Shown: positions 299 through 47,230 of the stretch, piece by piece
How the letters are laid out: the number at the start of each line of letters is the position of its first letter
Numbering within the stretch: the stretch's first letter is position 1
Assembly (NCBI RefSeq): GCF_006345805.1
Contig: NC_043023.1
Span: 17,546,001-17,610,000, forward strand
DNA: 64,000 bases
Origin: Octopus sinensis
Taxonomy: Eukaryota
Direction of reading: 5' to 3'
Notes under the pieces: generated by a model
The model's database searches: none
What the model was told of the DNA's origin: nothing
The model's input: only the letters and a program-made list of their open reading frames with translations
Position numbers and translations under genes: made by a program

Positions 299-700
299 AG
301 GCGCAGGAGTGGCTGTGTGGTAAGTAGCTTGCTTACCAACCACATGGTTCCGGGTTCAGTCCCACTGCGTGGCATCTTGGGCAAGCGTCTTCTGCTATAG
401 CCTCGGGCCGACCAAAGCCTTGTGAGTGGATTTAGTAGACGGAAACTGAAAGAAGCCCGTCGTATATATGTATATGTATGCGTGCGTGTGTTTGTGTGTC
501 TGTGTTTGTCCCCCTAGCATTGCTTGACTATCGATGCTGGTGTGTTTATGTCCCCGTCACTTAGCGGTTCAGCAAAAGATACCGATAGAATAAGTACTGG
601 GCTTACAAGGAATAAGTCCCGGGGTCGAGTTGCTCGATTAAAGGCAGTGCTCCAGCATGGCCGCAGTCAAATGACTGAAACAAGTAAAAGAGTAAAAGAG
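299..700 (+). mobile_element. tRNA-derived SINE, family A (full length)
   Basis: A-box-like TGGCTGTGTGG, B-box-like GGTTCAGTCC, internal (TA/TG)n, tail GAAACAAGTAAAAGAG; other copies at 9927/13550, 41817 and minus-strand fragments. Confidence 0.85.
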
Positions 701-9926: not shown

Positions 9927-9961
9927 GCGCAGGAGTGGCTGTGTGGTAAGTAGCTTGTCTA

Positions 9962-12017
9962 ACCTCTGAACTGTTCGGACGTGTTATTTTGCTGCTCCGA
10001 TTGCCACGTTGTTTCAACGTGAATTGTTGAACTTTCGAGTCGACTAAAGGTAGGAATTTTGTATTTTTGCGGGCGAAGTGAAGTTTTATTACTTGCATTA
10101 ATGTTTTTTAGCATTAAATATTTTTTTGGCAGATAATAAGGCTCCACTTTGCTCCGGATATAATTTTTCTGCCTGTTGTCGGGTGTGAAGAAAATTGTGT
10201 TTTTTGAGGCGGCGTAGTCCGTCTACAAAAATCATTTTGAAATTGTCGTTGTGTCATCCACGGATTTACCAAGGATTATTTACCAAGGTGTTTTACCAAC
10301 AGTGTATTTGGCCTGGAATACAATTTTTGGCCGAAAAAGTGAACAAAAAAAAAAGAAAAATTAATTCCTTTGTCTGAATTTGAACTCTCTTTCTCCGTCT
10401 ATCATTCATTTGTAAAAAAAAAAGAACTTTCTTTGAACTGCCATTTTAATTTTTTTCTTCCCTTCTGTTGCTTGTTTTCATTCTCCTTTCTGTGTCTAAT
10501 TTATTTTGTAACATGTTTGAACTGTTTTTCTTAAGTTATGGCAAGGAATTTCACAGTGTGGGAATTAAACACCTCCCAAAAAATTTGAACGAACTTGAGA
10601 AAAGACAGTGGCTGAGGAGATATTCGAAGTCACTCGACACCATAATGGTCTTTCCGAAAGACACAATTATGAACGAGCTGGCAGGACTATATGCCAGCCG
10701 TTAAAACATATTCAACGGGGAGCCAAATACGCAACGATTTGGTTGCGTTTGACTCCCCTAAAGCAGCTTGCGATTTCGCGAGTAAGCCCATTGAAGGCAA
10801 AGAGATTCTGTTTCTCCCAAGCTATAAGGGGGAAAAATTGACACGTTTATGGGTCTGCGGCCTGCCGCCCGGCTTTGAGCCCGAGTGGGTGGAAGATTCC
10901 ATCCGCCGGGGTCTGAGTGGTGGTAGCGCCAAGATCCTGAACGTGAAAATGCAGCCTGCGGCTGACTGGGAAGGGGCAAAGGCTACTTTGACTCTGTGGA
11001 CCCAGTCGGCCAAGAGTCTGGTTTTGCCGGACTTCCTGAAGATGGCCGGGTCCAAGTATCCGGTGATGCTAGAGGGACGCGCCCCCAAGTGTCACCTGTG
11101 TTCGGAGACCGGCCATATTAAGAAAAACTGCCCCAGGAACCAGAGTAGGATCCTGGAGAAGTTAATATCAGAGCCTCTCCCTGCCCCACCAATGGAGGGA
11201 GAGAAACAAAGTGAGAAGGGGCAAAAATCCTCCTCCAAAAGAAAAAGAAGAGTGGGGAGCAATGGCGACCCACCAAAGGAACCGGAGGCTGCGGAAGTAA
11301 AAGAGGACCCGGTGCGTATAGCACCGGAACCTCAACCTCCCGAGGCCCATCGTAAAAAGAAAAAGAAAAAGAGGAACGGGACGCCACCAGCGGACTGTAA
11401 CACCCAGAGGGCGTCTTCCAGGTGTCCTCCGGCGATTGTGATGCCGGAGAAATTTTATGTAGTCCTCTTCCATAAAGGAGGCACTGTAGAAAATGAAATA
11501 CGTAAGAGGAGGAAGAGAAACGAATGGGAGGGACTTCGGTCCTGCATGGAGTATCCCGAGTGGCCTTCGCAGCTGGCTGCGGAGGTCCTACTCGAAAATG
11601 ATATGTGCAGGATCGAGAATTCTTTCCCGGAGGATCTCTTGCAAGTCATACCTGTATGCGGAAGCCTGACGATGGACGATTGCGTCATTAAAGCAAGAGA
11701 GTTCATCGGTCGGGTAACGTAAAATTGTAATTGTGTTACATTGTGACAGAGGTTTATTGCCTCTGAAGAGACTTTTTAAAGTGTAAATTGTAAATTGGAA
11801 TTTTTGTGAAAATTTTTTGAAATTTTTGTAATTTTTGAAATTTTGTAAATAATTGAAAAAAAAAAAAAAGAACATTGTTTTAGAGAAGCAAAAGTCGGCG
11901 GGCGCTTTCTGACTTCTCCCATCACCATATTCATCAATCACCACCATCATCCATTAATGTCCTTGTCCAGCCCGTAGCTACTCTTTGTGCTGCCCTTGTG
12001 GCAAATTAAATGAAATA
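9962..12017 (+). mobile_element. ORF1-only non-LTR retroelement 1 (HAL1-like, L1/Tx1-type)
   Basis: Bounded by AAGTAGCTTGTCTA (9948-9961, 12018-12031); 5' UTR, gag-like ORF1, no EN/RT, 3' end TGCCCTTGTGGCAAATTAAATGAAATA. Confidence 0.8.
10691..11722 (+). CDS. Retroelement ORF1 (gag-like nucleic-acid chaperone, CCHC zinc knuckle), 343 aa
   Basis: CHLCSETGHIKKNC = CX2CX4HX4C at 11090-11131, preceded by an RRM-like segment LWVCGLPP; Lys/Arg-rich tracts. The true N-terminus may lie in the overlapping frame ending at 10704 (frameshift). Confidence 0.8.
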   Translation: MPAVKTYSTGSQIRNDLVAFDSPKAACDFASKPIEGKEILFLPSYKGEKLTRLWVCGLPPGFEPEWVEDSIRRGLSGGSAKILNVKMQPAADWEGAKATLTLWTQSAKSLVLPDFLKMAGSKYPVMLEGRAPKCHLCSETGHIKKNCPRNQSRILEKLISEPLPAPPMEGEKQSEKGQKSSSKRKRRVGSNGDPPKEPEAAEVKEDPVRIAPEPQPPEAHRKKKKKKRNGTPPADCNTQRASSRCPPAIVMPEKFYVVLFHKGGTVENEIRKRRKRNEWEGLRSCMEYPEWPSQLAAEVLLENDMCRIENSFPEDLLQVIPVCGSLTMDDCVIKAREFIGRVT

Positions 12018-12031
12018 AAGTAGCTTGTCTA

Positions 12032-13549
12032 ACGCGCATGCGTCGAGTTGTTTACTGTGTCGAGTTTTGACTAGGCGGACAGAATCCTTTGAGCTGCTCG
12101 CCAGCGGTTTGTTGGCGAGTGGAAAATAATGTATTCGGACCTTAGCGAGTACGAGCTGTCCACATCTGAGGAGGAGCTCGTTAAGGCGGTGAACAGGATG
12201 GACCAACATTTGGAGAAAATGAAGAGTTTTGCTGACGCGGCGGGAGTGAAGAGAAAGGAAGTGGACCTGACTGAACTGAAGGAGCTGTATAAGATGACAC
12301 AGAAGGTGGGAAGTGACGTAAAGTTACTACCCCCGAAAACGGTCATGGTGAATATGGAAAGGAAAACCATCACCTACAATGTGCACTCAGTGGAGAGTAG
12401 GAGAGTGGAGCAGATGAATGTATGGAAAATAGGAAAAAGCTCTCAAGGGGCTTTCGAACGAGAGTAGTACATACATAGCAAACGGAAGCGGGGATATGGG
12501 ACGGTGGTTCCCAGTTTAAAACAGCAGGAGGAGGCGGAGGCTGGCAAGTGCAACCGTAAAAGCTGAGGACTGGTGCTTCTACCCTCTTATCTTGGAAGAA
12601 AAAATTCTAAGGTGAGGGTAGAAGGAATTCCACCTGACATAAAGGTGGCTGGGTTGCGGCAGCCGTCCTCGTTGGAAGTGAGGAGGTGACTGTCCTCCAA
12701 GCCACAGAGACACAGAGGAAAGAAGTTACAAAGGAAAATTACTGGAAATGACCATACAAGCGGAGGCGAAGGAGCTGGAAAATTTGGCGGAACAGTAACC
12801 GTTGTCAGTAGGGAGAAATGGTACTGAGAGTATGGGTAGAAGGCAGAACCCCGCGGTGCTTTAAATGTGGCCAAAAAGGCCACATTAGAGCACACTGCCC
12901 CTACAGAAGAAAAAGAGCACACTGCCCCCTACAGAAGAAAAAGAGGAAAACATAGATGAACCAGTTGCGGAGACAAAGAAGAGAAAAGAGGACGAAGACA
13001 AAAGACGGACGAAAGGAGGAAGAATGGATAGTAGCAGAGAGCAGAAGTAAGAAGAGGAAGAAAAGAAAGAACACTGAGTGTGAAAGGTACCCCAGTCCAA
13101 CTCCATCCCACCCAAGACCACTCAGACCCACCCGCCCATACAGACACCAGACCCACCCACTCCTTTCCCCACAAGAAAAAAAGAAAAAGAAAAAAGAGCA
13201 GACACCAAAGAATTCAGAAAAAAACCCCTCCCAGGTGAAAAAAGGTTGCGAAAGAAAGTTGTCTTTAAGCGATAGCGAGAGTGGAAAAAGAAGGACTAGA
13301 CCAGAGATTAGAGAAGAATTCAGACTCAAAGGCAGCGAGTGGTGTTGCTCAAAGTGGGGTGAGTAGCACACTCGTCATATTTCATACTTCATTTTCAGAT
13401 ATCATGCATGTTATCATAAACTTAATCTATTTTCTCACGTTCATTTTCATGTCACTCACAGTATCATTTTATTCTTGATTGTTATATGTCTCCACATGTT
13501 TTGTAGTGTCCCCTCTGTGTAATGCCTTTATGGCAAAATAGTTGAAATA
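12032..13549 (+). mobile_element. ORF1-only non-LTR retroelement 2 (frameshifted ORF1)
   Basis: Bounded by AAGTAGCTTGTCTA (12018-12031, 13550-13563); encodes PSYLGRKNSKVRVEGIPP and VWVEGRTPRCFKCGQKGHIRAHCP (CCHC 12857-12898); 3' end TGCCTTTATGGCAAAATAGTTGAAATA. Confidence 0.8.
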
Positions 13550-14013
13550 AAGTAGCTTGTCTACCAGCCACATGGTTCCGGGTTCAGTCCTACTGCGTGG
13601 CACCTTGGGCAAGTGTTTTCTACTATAGCCTCGGGCCGACCAAAGCCTTGTGAGTGGATTTGGTAGACGGAAACTGAAAGAAGCCCGTCGTATATATGTA
13701 TATGTATGCGTGCGTATGTATGCGTGCATATATGTATATGTATGCGTTGCTTGACAATCGATGCTGGTGTGTTTATGTCCCCGTGGCTTAGCGGTTCGGC
13801 AAAATAGACCGATAGAATAAGTACTGGGCTTACAAAAGAATAAGTCCCGGGGTCGAGTTGCTCGATTAAAGTTGGTGCTCCAGCATGACCGCAGTCAAAT
13901 GACTGAAACAAGTAAAAGAGTAAAAGAGTAATATATTTACACATAATCTCAAATGCAGATAGATACGTATGTACACATAAATACGTAGATACATATATAA
14001 ATGTATATATATA

Positions 14014-14787
14014 CGAGGGGCATTCAATAAGTAATGCCCCTGACCCACTTCCCATAGCAGTAGAGCAACGACACTTGGCACAGTTATTGGTCTTCTTTTA
14101 CATAGGAACCACCCAGAGTTACGCATTTCTCCCATCGTTTGATGCAGCTCTGGAGACCGTTTTTGTAGAAGACCCCAGCTTGGTCCTCCAGCCACGACGT
14201 GACTTCAGAAATCAAGGCTGCATCATCTGGGAAACGCTTTCCTTTCAAAAACAACTTCATGGCTAGGAAGAGGTGAAAATCCGAGGGTGCAAGGTCAGGA
14301 GAGTAGGGGGATGGGGGATGAGTTCATCGCCATACGACTGTGCTTTGATCTGGCGACAAGCGAGTTGTGGACCGGAGCGTGTCCTGCAGGAGGAGGATGC
14401 CTTTGCTGATCTTGCCCCGCCTCTTGATTTTGATAGCTTCTCTTAATTTCCTCAAAGGTGAAGCATGATAGGCTCCTGTAATTGTGGTACCGTTTGCCAG
14501 GAAATCTGTCATCACTACTCCGTCCTGGTCCCAGATGACTGTGAGCATGACCTTGCCAGCGGAGGGCTGCACCCTTGCCTTCTTTGGAGGAGGTGAGTCA
14601 CGGTGTTTCCACTGCATTGACTGGGCTTTGGTCTCTGGATCATGGTGATGGACCCAGGTTTCATCCTGTGTAATCAGTCTTTTGAAAAATTTTGACTCAT
14701 CTTCATGGCACATCTCCTCGAGCACTCGACGCGTTCTTGCTTCTGGAAAGGGTGTGAGCAATATGGGAATCCATCTGGCAGACACCT
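14014..14787 (-). mobile_element. Mariner transposon, 3' part with transposase remnant, cut by assembly gap
   Basis: ARWIP, LITQDETWVHHHDPETK, SAGKVMLTVIWD and LLLQD motifs; terminus TA|CGAGGGGCATTCAATAAGTAATG. Confidence 0.9.
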
Positions 14788-14887
14788 NNNNNNNNNNNNN
14801 NNNNNNNNNNNNNNNNNNNNNNNNNNNNNNNNNNNNNNNNNNNNNNNNNNNNNNNNNNNNNNNNNNNNNNNNNNNNNNNNNNNNNNN
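14788..14887. other. Assembly gap (100 N)
   Basis: Run of N. Confidence 1.
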
Positions 14888-15599
14888 TAACATACTAAGA
14901 AATATTGACTTAATTTTAAAAATTGAAACTATTTTAAAATATTAGGAAGATCAAAAGTATTATATATTAAAAATAGGAAATAAACAAAAATAATAGATTC
15001 TACTATTTCTCAATTTCATAAAGTCTCAAAACAATTAACACACACATTAGAAAAATGTTGGCAATAAAACCAAAATTTTATTATTAAATGTTTATGTGAA
15101 AGATATAGTAAACACGTGGTAAGAAAATAATTATAATATAAAGCCAAATGTTAAACTAAATCAAACTTAAATATTACAGAAAGTACTATGTAAAACTAAA
15201 ACCTATGCAAAATGTTTCTTTTCTCAAGAAACATTTTTTTTTATTTTCGTACAAAAACTACAACATTTTATTGTACAAATGTTTCGTATAAACTGTTCTT
15301 TTACTCCAAACATTAAAATAAAATTTCAGAACTTTTTACTCAAAATGTTCCATCTTGGTCCTTGAGATAACCTTACGCGTGTCTTACCTTTTGTTCACAT
15401 ATTTCTGTTGTCCACTGCACATGAAATAATTCGCAATGAGTGCAGAGTAATCGAAGTATCTTGAATATATTTCGATTTGGATTCGTGTCCCTCCAAAACG
15501 GTGTGACACAGAAGTGCCCCAGTGTGTGGTATGTTACAAAATCTTTGAGCATGATGGAATGCGACCCTCACGCTTGGAATGCCACTTGAGGATAACACA

Positions 15600-25497: not shown

Positions 25498-26248
25498 CAG
25501 CGCTTCTGCAATTCATTCTGACAGTAACTTCCACATTAACGGGAGGCAGGAAATTCGTCTGCATTTCCCTTTGATGCATCCTTCAGGCACAACACCCTTC
25601 TTCTTCTTCTTCTTAGCCAGCCTGGGATTTATTCTTTTCCATTAATCAATGCATTTAATTGCTCTCCGTTCAATTTACGGCAACTACTGAACTATTGTAA
25701 CTAAAATCCCTGTACACCATCAGGCTTTGATGCTTTCCTATTGCATATATTTTTACTCATATTTCTAATAATGTCTTCTATGAAGTGAGTGGCCTCTTGC
25801 TGAGGATAAGCTGTTTACTTCAGGTTGCAGAGTCATTCAGCTGTAGTATTATGCTATACATGCTTACACCATACCTTATCCCAGAAAAGTCGAATTTTAT
25901 CAGCATCAGGGACTAATCTTGTACGTTTTTTATCGTCATTATTCTCTGGTCAAAATCTTTTTTTGGTCACTTCTAAATAATTTGTTTGGCTGGTATTGCT
26001 TAATCCATTATTCAAACCTATTCAAAACTTTGCTTATTTTGCATCTATGGGCTGCTTCAGTTCTTCAATTCCATTCTTCCTAACGTTTTCGAATTTCCAT
26101 TCATATTTAAGTTTTCCATTTCTTTTCAATGTCAATTATTGACGCTACTCTGCTCACAGAGTTTATATCATCAGAAATGTCTTTCCCTCCACTACCAAAT
26201 ATGGTTGAGAATGAGAGGAAGAATAGCAGCAGCAACAACACCACCACC

Positions 26249-26399: not shown

Positions 26400-29115
26400 G
26401 GAAACGTGAAACACTAGTAAAGTTGGACACTGCCACCATTTCCGTGTCAAACAGAGGAGAAAAAAATTATTAAAGCAACAACATTGTTTGCTTCTATTTA
26501 TTTCCGTGTTAGAATGGAATGGGAGGTGGAACTGCTGTGTTGCCTCGGAGAATTTGGATCTCGAGATAAACACTATCTTCCTTGACTCAGACGGAAAGTT
26601 AGTCGTCCAGGATGTGATGAGGAGTGACAGGGGTGGCTTCACGCTGGTGGCTGTCTATCCTCCTACAGGAACATGGCACCCGGACTACTTCAAACTCCTG
26701 GAAGTTGTTTTCTCAGAACGTTTCGTCCTTTAGAGCTTATGGGCAACTGGAACGCTGTCTTACAGTCACGTTTGGACCGTTTAGAGCTAGCGGATAGAGT
26801 AGGTGGGTGCAAAAGTCTCGCAAAACAGGTCAGAAGTTTTCAACTGTCTGACAAGTACCGGCTGGATTTCCAGAACGCACCAGTATGGACTTGGGCTAAC
26901 CGCAGTGGGTCATCCAGGTCGTATTTAGATACAATTCCAGTAGGCCAGTGGACAGAAATAGTATAAGTTGACTAATTTTCAAAATCGTCACCTACACATA
27001 CCACACATTTGTGATCTGGGCAGGGATCCAGTTACTGCAATCTGGACGCCTCACTCCTGGTGTGCTCAGCTGACTGAGACCACATTACTAAATTAGGTAA
27101 GCGTGTACTAACAGGGTCAATACATAACGATAAATGGGGGTACGCTCTAAAAGGGCAATTGGAATAGAATCGATTATGTTTAGGAAGGGACTCGCGAATT
27201 AAAGCCGCTCGATGGGAACGACTTACAGAGGCTCAACGCAGAAACAGATCCACAATTCAGTCTTTGGTGGATCCAGGTGACCGAACGATACTCGAGCCCA
27301 AGCGGATGTGTGCCGGATTCAATCAGCAGGGATCCGGTTACTGGAATCTGAATGCGTCACACCGGGATGTGATAATGGGCTGCATGGCAGGCAAATCGCT
27401 TGATTTGGATAGTCTGCGTATTGGGCTTTACTATTATATGCCAGATTTGTTTGGCGAATTCTTAGCAGACTTCTACCGCCACTGACAGCAGAATGGAGAA
27501 AGCCGAGTTCTATGAGCCGAGGAATTGGAGAACTTTCAAGAAAGAACTCTAAGAAGAGGGATCGAATAGAAACTTTTCGGCCGGTAACTCTGCTGAACGC
27601 GGACTTCAAAATTTTGGCCAAGGTACTTGCGCAATCCCAATCAGATCCATCCACAACAATATCCACCTCATGAGACATATCATAGACAGTGTTGTTAATG
27701 AAGCTGGCATGAGTGGGACGTTGAACAGTTTAGATCAGCCTAAAGCATTTGTTAGGATCGCAGCAATGTACCGTGGTATCTCGTCGTAGTTTGGGTGAAT
27801 CATTACATTTTGGAACCATTCAACATCAGGAGATCGGCCCGTCAAAGCTATCCTCTCTCGCCTCTCCAGCAGATGATCAGTCTAACGCTATTAGAGCGAA
27901 ATTAGAGGTGGTGAGAGGTATCCCGCCCAAACTGAGACATGGAAGAACCGTGTCGGCATATGCAAACGACTTCACCGCCATAGGTTCAACGCTAAACATT
28001 CGGACCTGGTTGACACCTTTCTAAAAGAACTCGATGATGTGACATGAGCAACAATTAACTTGAAGTTAGTGGGCCTGCAACTCGGCGCTGGGAGAGACAG
28101 ATCTATGACTTCCAATAGCATTGTGGGACGCTGGACGGAATAACCTGTTAAATTGATCGGCGCCTGGCTCGGTCCTGAAATCCAGATGAAGAAAATGGAC
28201 GAGAGAGCGAGAAGGCTATCCCTGAAAGGTCGGGTGGAGTTTGCAAATGCATCCATCGAATTCGTCATCTACTACCGCCTCAAGACTGACCAATCTTCAG
28301 CGCCTAGTGTTCCGCTTTCTGTGGAAGGAATGTAATCCGCTGGTCAGGAGCTCCATTTGCTGTCAACACCCGCTAGCTTGCAGCAACTCCAGCGATTCTT
28401 AGAAGGTTACCAAGTGTTGTCGCCGTTTGTCAGAAGCGTTTTCTCACTACTTTTCCTTTTCACTGATCAAGCTTAGACCGAGGAAGGGAGACGGCCACCT
28501 ATAGTGTCGTCATGCGCCCACACTCCTGTGTCAGTCAGGCAATGCGGTCGTGGAAATTCCGTTATGGCGTCCTATAGAGGGTTAATGGCGGGTAAGTACG
28601 ACGATGTTCTCATGGAGTCACTTGGCGTCGACAAGAACGTGTTGGCTGGTCTGTTCCGGACAACTTTCGGGCCAAGGACTATGCATAATTTCTAGAAAAC
28701 CTTTTGGCTGGAAGTGATACCGTAGGGCACTGCTCGTTCGAGGTAAACTCTAGAAACAGAAGAACATTCATCCCGGCATACCCAGATACGCAGAGAGCGA
28801 CGAAATTGTTCTTCTCACTCACTTTTAGTGCCCTTATTTTTCTGAATTGCGGGTTTATGTCGAATATCTGCTGTCGCGTGGAAGACGAATCCAGATATCG
28901 ACTCAGTCCATTGTGAGGATAGTTTCGCTGCCTTTCTTCGCACCGAAATAGCAGGGTGTTTTTCGTTGCCTGGTATATTTATTGAAAGACGTTGTATGGT
29001 GGACCAGGTTGAAAGGGCTGAAGACAGATGTGAGTGTCACTGTTGATGTCACTTGTGCAACTAACATTTGGAAACTGTGAATAGGATGCAAGCTTCGAGT
29101 ACTTGTAGGTAACAT
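26400..29115 (+). mobile_element. Decayed L1/Tx1-type LINE ORF2 (APE endonuclease + RT)
   Basis: GKLVVQDV, LVAVYPP, MGNWNAVL, WTWANRSGSSRSYLD, FRPVTLLNADFKILAKVLA, SAYANDFT and LSLKGRV motifs with many frameshifts. Confidence 0.85.
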
Positions 29116-41816: not shown

Positions 41817-41943
41817 AGAGTGGCTCTGTGGTAAGAAGCTTGCTTTCCAACCAAATGGTTCCGGCTTTAGTACCACTGCATGACACCGTCCGACTAAGGC
41901 CTTGTGAGTAGATTTGGTAGAGCGAAACTGAAAGAAACCCATC

Positions 41944-42025
<82 letters not shown>

Positions 42026-42240
42026 TCTATCTGGACTTGTCCCACTCACCGTCGCTTAATAGCCGATGCTGGTGTGTTTACGTCCCCGTAACCTGGCGGT
42101 TCGGCAAAGTAAACGACCGAATAAGTACTAGGCTTACAAATAATAAGATATGGGGTCGATTTGTTCGACTAAAGGCGGTACTTTAGCATGGTCGCAGTCA
42201 AATGACTGAAACAAGTAAAGGAATGAAGAATAAGAGAGTA
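41817..42240 (+). mobile_element. SINE family A (diverged)
   Basis: AGTGGCTCTGTGGTAAGAAGCTTGC...GACTGAAACAAGTAAAG. Confidence 0.8.
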
Positions 42241-45729: not shown

Positions 45730-47230
45730 AGACACCCTCTCAGTCTTTCCATCCTTCAATCAGCAGAACATCATGGATCAGTGGAATGTGTGATCATGCG
45801 TGCCTTGGAGTCAATTTGGAAGCAAGGTCCGTTGTTCAGGGACCTCCGATCGCATGAGATATTCCTGTATCTTAGAATTTTCCCTTGAACGATGGCTATG
45901 TTATCAGGCAAGTCACTGAATTTCAAAGTATGGACAGTTATTCTCCACATCTGTGCTACCAGATGCTCCACAGCGATGTTCTGAAAGCAATGCATTCGTA
46001 TAGTGAAGGTGGTATTCTCAGTTTAGTAGTTGTGTGATACCACTGTGTCAAGGGGATCGATTTCTCAGGGCATCAGAAAGGTTTCCTAGGAAACCATCGA
46101 TCTCAATTAGGTGAATTTGAAACTGCACATTATACACAAGGCTCTGTGAGAGTAATGCAAAGAAGCGGCTACAAAGAACATCGAAATCCTGCTTTTACGG
46201 TTCCAGGGGTCTATAGATTTATGACTGGATTTTTCTGATGTAATTGTACAGACTCGGAGCATCCCAGATTGGTCATCTTAATCGTATCTTGAAAGAGTGT
46301 TAGGCCAGCAGATAAGGATAGTGTAGGATACCCTTAGTTTAAAGTGGATGTTGGACGTGTGTCTTCGAGCTTGCAAAGATTACAGGGGTTAGACTAATGA
46401 ATTTGTGAAGCAATGCAATAGTTGAGAGGGATTATTATCCACAACCAGTGGTAGTGCGTCGTTAAAGGGACGAAGAGGACATTTAAGTTAGAGAGCGTTT
46501 AGCGAAGTTCTATCCATAGGGTCCATGCAGAGATGTGAAGATTCCCCACAGCATTTCGTTTATGTGTTCGGGACAGGCAATGGATCGGAGACAGTAGTGT
46601 TCTGCAGTACTTATATCGATGGACTATCGACAGATGTGAAGTGTAGCGAGAATCCGATTACATCATTTGAAATATTGAGAGCAATATACTCTTGCACAAA
46701 GCGTAAATAGTCCGGTTTGGATGGTCTGCCTTTCGGGTTTTAGTAATACATGCCAGACGAAATCATTCTGCAGTCACTCGTTCAATGTCCTGATATTGCT
46801 TATTTGTGGAGTTATGATAAACAACTCCTGTCTGATGGGGGACGGTTCTGGCTATCAACCGAGTACATCATGATGAATGCTCCGCCACCAACCTTTATCA
46901 GAGTAGGGAAAGTAGTTTTCCTCTGTCTGGTGACTATAACGAAGGAGGTTGTGTGTAAGTTGTAAGTTATGAGTTCTAAGACATTCCTCTTTTGGTCGAG
47001 GCCTCATTTACCTCTTCAAGATTCAATTAAGAAATAAATTGTGTGGAGAGGAAGGTGCTGTCCATAAGTGAATTTATTGAAAGGTTGGTGAAAACGGTTG
47101 ACGTCGCAAGAGCGAATGGCACTGCTCTAAACGTATAGACCCGTGTGACGGAAGAAAATTAATTGGAGAGGGCAGTTGCCCTTAATATTCAGGGTGAGGT
47201 TGGATGGTGGGGTTCTTCGATTGGTTCTAG
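45730..47230. mobile_element. Decayed, rearranged Tx1-like LINE fragments
   Basis: SPGLDGLP-like remnant near 46710; 46790-46935 resembles the 3' part of the 26.4-29.1 kb element. Confidence 0.45.

Follow-up and report, generated by a model that had tools for sequence, protein, structure and literature searches.

The locus described here raises the question of why two different retroelements lie one behind the other at a single site within a short interspersed nuclear element (SINE). It was noticed in a 64,000-nt stretch of Octopus sinensis DNA (NC_043023.1, positions 17,546,001 to 17,610,000 of the forward strand), hereafter the window. A reading of the window made from the sequence alone (the sequence-only reading) had taken the two inserts, here called E1 and E2, for elements with open reading frame (ORF) 1 only, directed to this SINE by an endonuclease. 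Our analysis found both families, together with an autonomous long interspersed nuclear element (LINE), at the same SINE site across the genome. E1 and E2 share the site and the 3' end of this LINE, and the LINE lineage probably makes copies of them in trans through target-primed reverse transcription.

The 14-mer AAGTAGCTTGTCTA was present in exact copies at positions 9948, 12018 and 13550 of the window; with up to two mismatches it gave four matches against 0.53 expected, a number reached in none of 100 shuffles. When the two segments between the copies were removed, the head (9927-9961) joined to 13564-13929 aligned end to end, at 90.8% identity, with an uninterrupted SINE at 301-700, confirming the earlier statement that an intact SINE is restored. 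E1 (9962-12017, plus strand) was 2056 bp and E2 (12032-13549, plus strand) 1518 bp in length. Their DNA was alike only in the last 37 nt (78%) and in short low-complexity words, so that a tandem duplication of one insert, also dismissed by the sequence-only reading, was ruled out. Both held ORF1-type coding sequence with one CCHC knuckle each, disrupted by stops or frameshifts in these copies, and the endonuclease/reverse transcriptase (RT) protein of the autonomous LINE had no match in either insert, in agreement with their description as ORF1-only. Both also finished with TGCC-n5-GGCAAA...GAAATA, the common 3' end that had been pointed out.

Read along the plus strand, the locus starts with the SINE head left of the insertion site (9927-9947), delimited by sequence and by alignment to the SINE at 301-700 and containing the A-box-like motif TGGCTGTGTGG at 9936-9946. 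Junction 1 (9948-9961) would consist of a duplicated target of about 8-11 nt and the start of a target-like 5' tag of E1 (CTAAC, 9959-9963), the true 5' end of E1 thus lying near 9959. The ORF1 of E1 (10538-11722), with two predicted RNA-recognition motifs (RRMs) and a CCHC knuckle from 11090, was broken near its N-terminus in this copy, the open frame spanning 10673-11722. The element ended at 11991-12017 with TGCC-CTTGT-GGCA...GAAATA, a terminus without poly(A) common to E2 and the autonomous LINE. Junction 2 (12018-12031) would likewise join a duplicated target to the start of the E2 tag (CTAAC, 12029-12033), with the true 5' end of E2 near 12029. The ORF1 of E2 (12129-13366) was frameshifted across three frames here, and comprised 408 aa counted from Met in intact relatives. 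E2 terminated at 13523-13549 with TGCC-TTTAT-GGCA...GAAATA, and was followed by the original target and the remaining SINE (13550-13929), with the B-box-like motif GGTTCAGTCC at 13581-13590. By consensus, TGGCTGTGTGG would be an A box and GGTTCAGTCC a B box.

Searches of the octopus genome with E1 and E2, in which the best 40 candidates were scored and the best 30 fetched for each, returned many near-full-length copies of both, identifying them as dispersed families. All 30 fetched E1 copies had their 3' junction at the SINE site, and the 5' junction was a SINE head or another element's end in 29 of them when judged by script, the single miss (L022) showing a head junction on inspection. For E2, either end taken singly was passed by 24 of the 30 fetched copies, and 26 copies passed at one or both ends; among those failing the script, the target was visible by eye in L056, and three others were partial matches. 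The two families occurred independently, each found alone and beside other neighbours, which ruled out that E1 and E2 form one element or that the two segments always occur together. A count based on the exact 3' end alone, and hence independent of the best-copy sampling, gave 835 exact element ends genome-wide, 604 of them directly followed by AAGNAGC, with 0 in the reversed-pattern control. The first 100 ends listed included 30 that were not exact, and these sorted by eye into 24 mutated targets or stack junctions, 1 antisense insertion, 2 ends elsewhere, which ran into AT-rich DNA, and 3 unclear cases. Most exceptions inspected were mutated targets. The preference measured by this tabulation of flanks, including the 3' ends of 30/30 E1 copies and 20/20 copies of the autonomous LINE, lies above the >20% of flanks used to define target preference in PMC4494074, and bore out the targeting proposed from the window. 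At two loci (L105, L106), a TGCC-n5-GGCA...GAAATA end was followed by AT-rich DNA instead of SINE, with no ORF match within 9.5 kb upstream; these possibly represent a related family with a different target.

Exact intact SINE sites numbered 28,393 and 35,184 in two counts, both lower bounds, and occupancy was on the order of 1%. These 63,577 sites correspond to about one per 85,000 strand positions of the 2.72 Gb genome. The insertion site lay directly 3' of the A-box-like motif, inside the pseudo-palindrome GGTAAG-n7-CTTACC. The sequence-only reading had placed recognition between the A and B boxes; the targeting itself held, and its position is refined accordingly. 5'-Truncated copies occupied the same SINE site, and one antisense insertion (L099) was observed at the mirror half of the pseudo-palindrome in a SINE head. 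The SINE target aligned weakly with tRNA genes, the best among 25 sampled sequences being tRNA-Lys(TTT), and the TGGTAAG core was present in 0/25 sampled tRNA sequences. An Rfam search of the SINE gave no tRNA match, the A- and B-box-like motifs having been recognised by eye.

The autonomous LINE was traced through a junction pattern with 755 matches; among 30 loci inspected, RT-type sequence lay upstream in four, one of which defined a family with about 99% identical copies. We refer to this family as the helper, after its probable role. The 20 fetched helper copies were mostly about 5.4 kb long with two ORFs; the 3' end was at the SINE site in 20/20 young copies, and a head or stack junction was found at the 5' end in 19/20. 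In the copy L134, ORF1 was a 488-aa open frame and ORF2 an intact 1137-aa frame with the Pfam domains Exo_endo_phos (PF03372), RVT_1 (PF00078) and zf-RVT (PF13966). The best match of ORF2 in the Protein Data Bank (PDB) was human L1 ORF2p (E 2.5e-65; R2, E 6e-20), and the catalytic motifs of the endonuclease aligned in place. With an N-terminal apurinic endonuclease-like (APE) domain, RT and a C-terminal zinc domain, and with L1 as its closest match, L134 was assigned to the L1 group. Four autonomous lineages sharing the target, the helper and three further, diverged ones (65-82% aa identity), formed one clade in a C-terminal ORF2 tree, with a Shimodaira-Hasegawa-like approximate likelihood ratio test (SH-aLRT) value of 99. 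Three independent runs whose organism labels differ had contigs over the helper in 30/30 bins, and it is therefore no assembly artefact. Parts of E1, E2 and the helper were also covered by contigs from runs that are possibly RNA, which speaks neither for nor against expression. The helper directly adjoined E1 or E2 in stacks at six loci (L012, L037, L128, L143, L144, L149). The autonomous partner with the same 3' end and target, for which the sequence-only reading had suggested a search, was thus found as a 5.4-kb APE/RT LINE stacked with both families.

Relatives were detected beyond this species, for ORF1 in Octopus bimaculoides and for the helper ORF2 in Argonauta hians. Membership of the helper in the Tx1 clade is likely from its type of ORF1 and its targeting. 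Searches returned no Tx1-labelled reference sequences, and the ORF2 tree had only unlabelled or "hypothetical" relatives. A type I ORF1p (RRM plus zf-CCHC), as found here, is consistent with Tx1 in non-mammalian animals according to the available text of PMC5203782, type I being not unique to Tx1. In the limpet Patella caerulea, eleven closely numbered ORF2 relatives, of 1153 aa or partial, lay on one contig (the P0015 cluster), which suggests a tandem, possibly site-specific array. As a separate observation, window 491-513 (SINE positions 191-213) matched the helper 3' untranslated region (UTR) just upstream of the shared end at 20/23 nt; a search for a LINE-tailed SINE with a single pattern, a narrow test, gave 0 matches.

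E1 and E2 are, on the sequence data, old lineages under selection and not recent deletions of the young helper, because their ORF1 identity to the helper is low and their ratio of nonsynonymous to synonymous substitution rates (dN/dS) is below 0.45. The ORF1 cores of E1 and E2 were about 25% identical to each other; compared with the helper, identity was 25-30% for E1 and 37-40% for E2. The dN/dS values were 0.15-0.25 in 10/10 pairs of E1 subfamilies (dS up to 1.4) and 0.16-0.43 over 10 pairs of E2 subfamilies, so that all 20 pairs indicated purifying selection on ORF1. By ORF1 core identity, the parents of E1 and E2 were not found among the four autonomous lineages, and may be extinct. No ORF2 was detected downstream in 20 sampled divergent E1-clade loci, 16 of which ended at the site within about 1.5 kb. 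Pfam gave zf-CCHC in 16 and RRM_3 in 4 of 17 ORF1 members, with no match to Transposase_22 in any of the 17; relatives were octopod. The model of the E1 core (predicted local distance difference test, pLDDT, 84) comprised two tandem alpha/beta domains followed by the knuckle, and a structure search matched these domains to RRMs (Z ~8, moderate; root-mean-square deviation 2.0-2.5 over 71-81 residues). The predicted architecture is RRM-RRM-CCHC, a type I ORF1p as in PMC5203782.

All members ended with TGCC-n5-GGCA...GAAATA without poly(A), and AATAAA was complete only across the 3' junction. The last 44 nt of E2 were 84%, and the last 19 nt of E1 95%, identical to the helper. As replicating families with ORF1 only and a 3' terminus common with an autonomous LINE, E1 and E2 have the features of ORF1-present non-autonomous LINEs. 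One E1 subfamily (L023-L029, L015) carried tandem repeats of about 200 bp in its 5' UTR, and distinct E1 5' starts were spread across the E1 tree, a scatter that suggests 5'-end swapping.

The junctions themselves indicated which part of the 14-mer belongs to the target. The 3' copy of the repeat tracked the SINE subfamily, and in the 5' copy the final five bases tracked the element: the 5' copy ended with CTAAC in 21/23 helper and 24/25 E1 junctions, and with CTTAC in 6/6 of one E1 subgroup. In 10 of 18 closed helper loci, this tag differed from the target's own positions 11-15. A fixed 14-bp target duplication was rejected, as the last ~5 bases of the 5' copy are element-borne, and for the same reason the boundaries given earlier, with inserts starting at AC behind a 14-bp duplication, did not hold. 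In 5'-truncated copies the duplications were about 7-16 nt by eye, and for full junctions we take the duplication proper to be about 8-11 nt, followed by an element-borne target mimic. Regeneration of the target at each insertion, as proposed in the sequence-only reading, thus stood, and the fixed length did not. That the 14-mer might belong to the elements' own termini was true for the last ~5 bases at the 5' terminus; this alters the mechanism at the junction and leaves the targeting untouched. The three 14-mers of the window are identical because the variant of this target matches the tag by chance. Old junctions of the AAGAAG type carried CTTCC in 8/8 cases and young ones of the AAGTAG type CTAAC or CTTAC in 101/108, and some young 5' ends held the old motif as well, nested behind the new.

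Heads upstream of near-identical (99%) helper copies were variably decayed, and the head therefore comes from the target; nothing spoke for a role of the A box left upstream of the insert, which had been pointed out earlier. Positions 8-11 of the 5' copy held extra or changed bases (TTTG, TCG, TTGT), and the extra-T form was absent from all 92 SINE-proximal copies tallied. On the helper tree, the extra-base class changed 9 times, where shuffles averaged 7.9 changes (469/500 shuffles as low or lower); on the E1 tree it changed 14 times, with a shuffle average of 16.5 (30/500, borderline), and there one class was tied to a tag. As the classes were not heritable in the helper and at most weakly so in E1, the extra bases likely arise during insertion. 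Inheritance of the whole 5' junction from a donor was rejected for the helper and was borderline for E1.

Mixed arrays of element families were common at the SINE site. In one chain, at about 10,434,000-10,463,400 of one contig (G000:C7; L148, L147, L146, L185), a single SINE head was followed by 13 or more clean junctions, and the ORF1 units, about 17 in number, came from mixed families; the chain extended over about 25-30 kb and was more decayed and chimeric in its 3' part. The serial stacking postulated from the window was thereby substantiated. A C at position 9 recurred in the next upstream junction in 7/12 pairs, compared with 15/118 otherwise (Fisher p 0.0007), a pattern in keeping with stacks that grow by duplicating the preceding junction. 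Two loci (L160, L144) carried the same pair of E2 and a further element, X, both units being 1.1-1.3% apart; the pair was possibly co-mobilised by read-through. At L088/L089, a SINE head preceded an inverted element 3' end, after which the same 3' end came in sense; the arrangement resembled a twin-priming inversion.

In the mechanism we propose, the APE endonuclease of the LINE likely nicks the bottom strand between GGT and AAG, just past the A-box-like motif, and its RT likely grips the common 3' end TGCC-n5-GGCA...GAAATA, which has no poly(A). Duplication of ~8-11 nt of target (7-16 in truncated copies) would create a new site each time, so that mixed stacks grow, probably 5'-ward. At the start of each RNA there is likely a short tag resembling the target (CTAAC, CTTAC or CTTCC) and acquired in an earlier duplication; by pairing with the cut top strand, it would favour 5' junctions that are precise and full-length, the variable extra bases being new at each insertion. 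Selection likely preserves in the ORF1-only lineages an RNA-binding protein of their own. As the insertion parts the A-box-like from the B-box-like motif by at least 1.5 kb, it would silence that SINE copy. A wider scheme, in which a LINE lineage specialised on the promoter head of the dominant SINE disables each copy that it enters and is exploited by at least two long-lived ORF1-only lineages, and in which all members re-capture the tag, a microhomology guide to exact full-length integration, as SINE subfamilies turn over, is put forward as a tentative three-tier parasite system, somewhat less probable than its opposite.

Several observations weigh against this account. The specificity of the endonuclease, the mobilisation in trans, the function of the tag and the silencing of the SINE are what we infer from sequence, and mobilisation in trans is drawn from the shared site and the shared 3' end only. 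DNA likeness to the helper was confined to the last 19 nt of E1 and 44 nt of E2, the ORF1 core of the helper had an identity of only about 26% to that of E1 and about 40% to that of E2, and the parents themselves did not come to light. The 3' hairpin was no stabler than shuffles (z -0.85 to -1.8) and was absent from the minimum-energy fold of E1; the small 3' stem was conserved in sequence. The first 8 nt differed between the two copies of the repeat in 5/49 junctions. As to growth of the stacks, the C9 pairs came largely from one array and hence were not independent, recurrence of the extra T was not significant (4/9 vs 24/121, p 0.10), and nearest-neighbour ages gave no clear 5'-young gradient, a result subject to sampling bias. 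The samples from the best-40 scoring lean to young full-length copies.

We accordingly considered whether the targeting could be real and yet not set by the endonuclease alone, through tethering to RNA polymerase III (Pol III) factors at the SINE promoter or RNA read-through into downstream target sequence, and/or whether a sister LINE moves the ORF1-only families. Such an arrangement would accommodate the position of the site against an A-box-like motif, an endonuclease hairpin loop no longer than that of human L1 in the alignment, the lack of poly(A) with AATAAA completed only across the 3' junction, the presence of several autonomous lineages at the same site and the distance of the helper ORF1 from those of E1 and E2. 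However, junctions inside stacks appear to be used again at kilobase distances from any A box, decayed heads are among the targets, and the insertion seen in antisense at the palindrome's mirror half fits recognition of the sequence. Target choice is also set mainly by the endonuclease in the available text of PMC4494074. We thus regard this explanation as unlikely, and more probable than either of the two that follow.

That the SINE and its insert were amplified as a composite, by the SINE's own partner or by segmental duplication after one or a few chance insertions, is largely refuted and has very little probability left. The SINE is indeed very abundant (28,393 and 35,184 exact intact sites), and the single pair of E2 and X at two loci, its units 1.1-1.3% apart, indicates that some co-movement may occur. 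Nevertheless, many unrelated families were found in differing orders at the same site, heads and bodies varied by SINE subfamily while helper copies were about 99% identical, 5'-truncated and antisense insertions shared the site, and the 63,577 sites amount to only about 1 in 85,000 strand positions of 2.72 Gb. An equally slight chance is given to the 14-mer being a terminal direct repeat through which a circular intermediate recombines without target-primed reverse transcription, as with DIRS-like elements or a site-specific recombinase. Although part of the 5' copy is element-borne and most copies found were full length without poly(A), the partner encodes an APE endonuclease and an L1-type RT, and Pfam showed no recombinase in its two ORFs. 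Variable-length duplications in the 5'-truncated copies, non-heritable extra junction bases and a 3' copy that tracks the SINE subfamily and not the element also speak against circular recombination. Target-primed insertion directed by the LINE endonuclease remains the preferred explanation.

Other features of the window were also recorded. Disrupted reading frames at 14084-14941 (minus strand) resembled a putative mariner-type transposase. An older SINE copy of the AAGAAG-type subfamily at 41818-42222, 66% identical to the young SINE, was without insert. A decayed L1-group ORF2 at 26709-29041 (plus strand), which shared about 30% identity with the helper and fell within the octopod clade's grouping, had a TTC repeat upstream near 25600, and a smaller fragment was present at 46534-46959.

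With these results, a SINE head offering >60,000 free sites is added to the targets of site-specific L1/Tx1-type retrotransposition, and such targeting is linked to ORF1-only hitchhikers on which purifying selection acts. For one mobile element, another likely serves as the standard landing pad. Through hundreds of natural junctions that fall on a single base, LINE 5'-end joining becomes testable with respect to target mimics and de novo extra bases, as does the retention of ORF1 by non-autonomous LINEs. The near-intact young helper opens endonuclease specificity to direct assay, and the stacks preserve the order in which many families were active and follow the turnover of SINE subfamilies. 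In openly searchable papers, Tx1 elements targeting transposable elements and ORF1-only LINEs were each known, and a SINE-targeting LINE or this octopod system was not found; a database entry may exist.

Among known systems, the Tx1 clade contains target-specific LINEs such as Tx1L in Tx1D, Keno in U2 and Kibi/Koshi in microsatellites, as described in the available text of Kojima (2015, PMC4494074). Like these, the octopus system has an L1-like APE/RT LINE that prefers one site in a multicopy repeat, other transposons being included among such targets. Whereas the targets given there are DNA transposons, long terminal repeat elements, small nuclear RNA (snRNA) and 5S genes, satellites and microsatellites, the octopus target is a SINE head. 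The DNA transposon Dada inserts at the tRNA A box (available text of Kojima 2022, PMC8869645), and the octopus insertions likewise lie in the A-box region of a presumed Pol III promoter of tRNA type; unlike Dada, which enters true tRNA genes, they are retrotransposons in SINE copies. HAL1 (half-L1), HeT-A and Ag-Sponge are ORF1-present non-autonomous LINEs (Kojima 2018, PMC5786205, PMC5753468, in the text available). E1 and E2 resemble them in having ORF1 only, in their probable dependence on an autonomous LINE and in their independent origins. HAL1, however, derives from mammalian L1, is not described as site-specific in that text and has a Transposase_22 ORF1p, whereas E1 and E2 have an RRM plus CCHC ORF1 and a single target base. 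HeT-A, as presented there, is Jockey-derived; it forms telomeric head-to-tail arrays and carries 5' tags. The octopus partner is L1-like, and its arrays occupy interstitial positions within SINE copies of many contigs, where duplication of the target builds them up. The closest parallel is the crocodilian Tx1-Mar, which shares a site in Mariner-N4_AMi with SINEU-3 and undergoes sequential tandem insertions, as far as PMC4494074 describes it. There too, a non-autonomous partner uses the same site and tandem insertions sandwich the target duplication. By contrast, the partners of Tx1-Mar in that account are snRNA-headed SINEs, and those in the octopus are protein-coding ORF1-only lineages, whose stacks mix many families and whose 5' ends carry target-like tags. 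By analogy, then, the octopus system, with a LINE of the L1 group, works like Tx1-Mar with HAL1-type partners.

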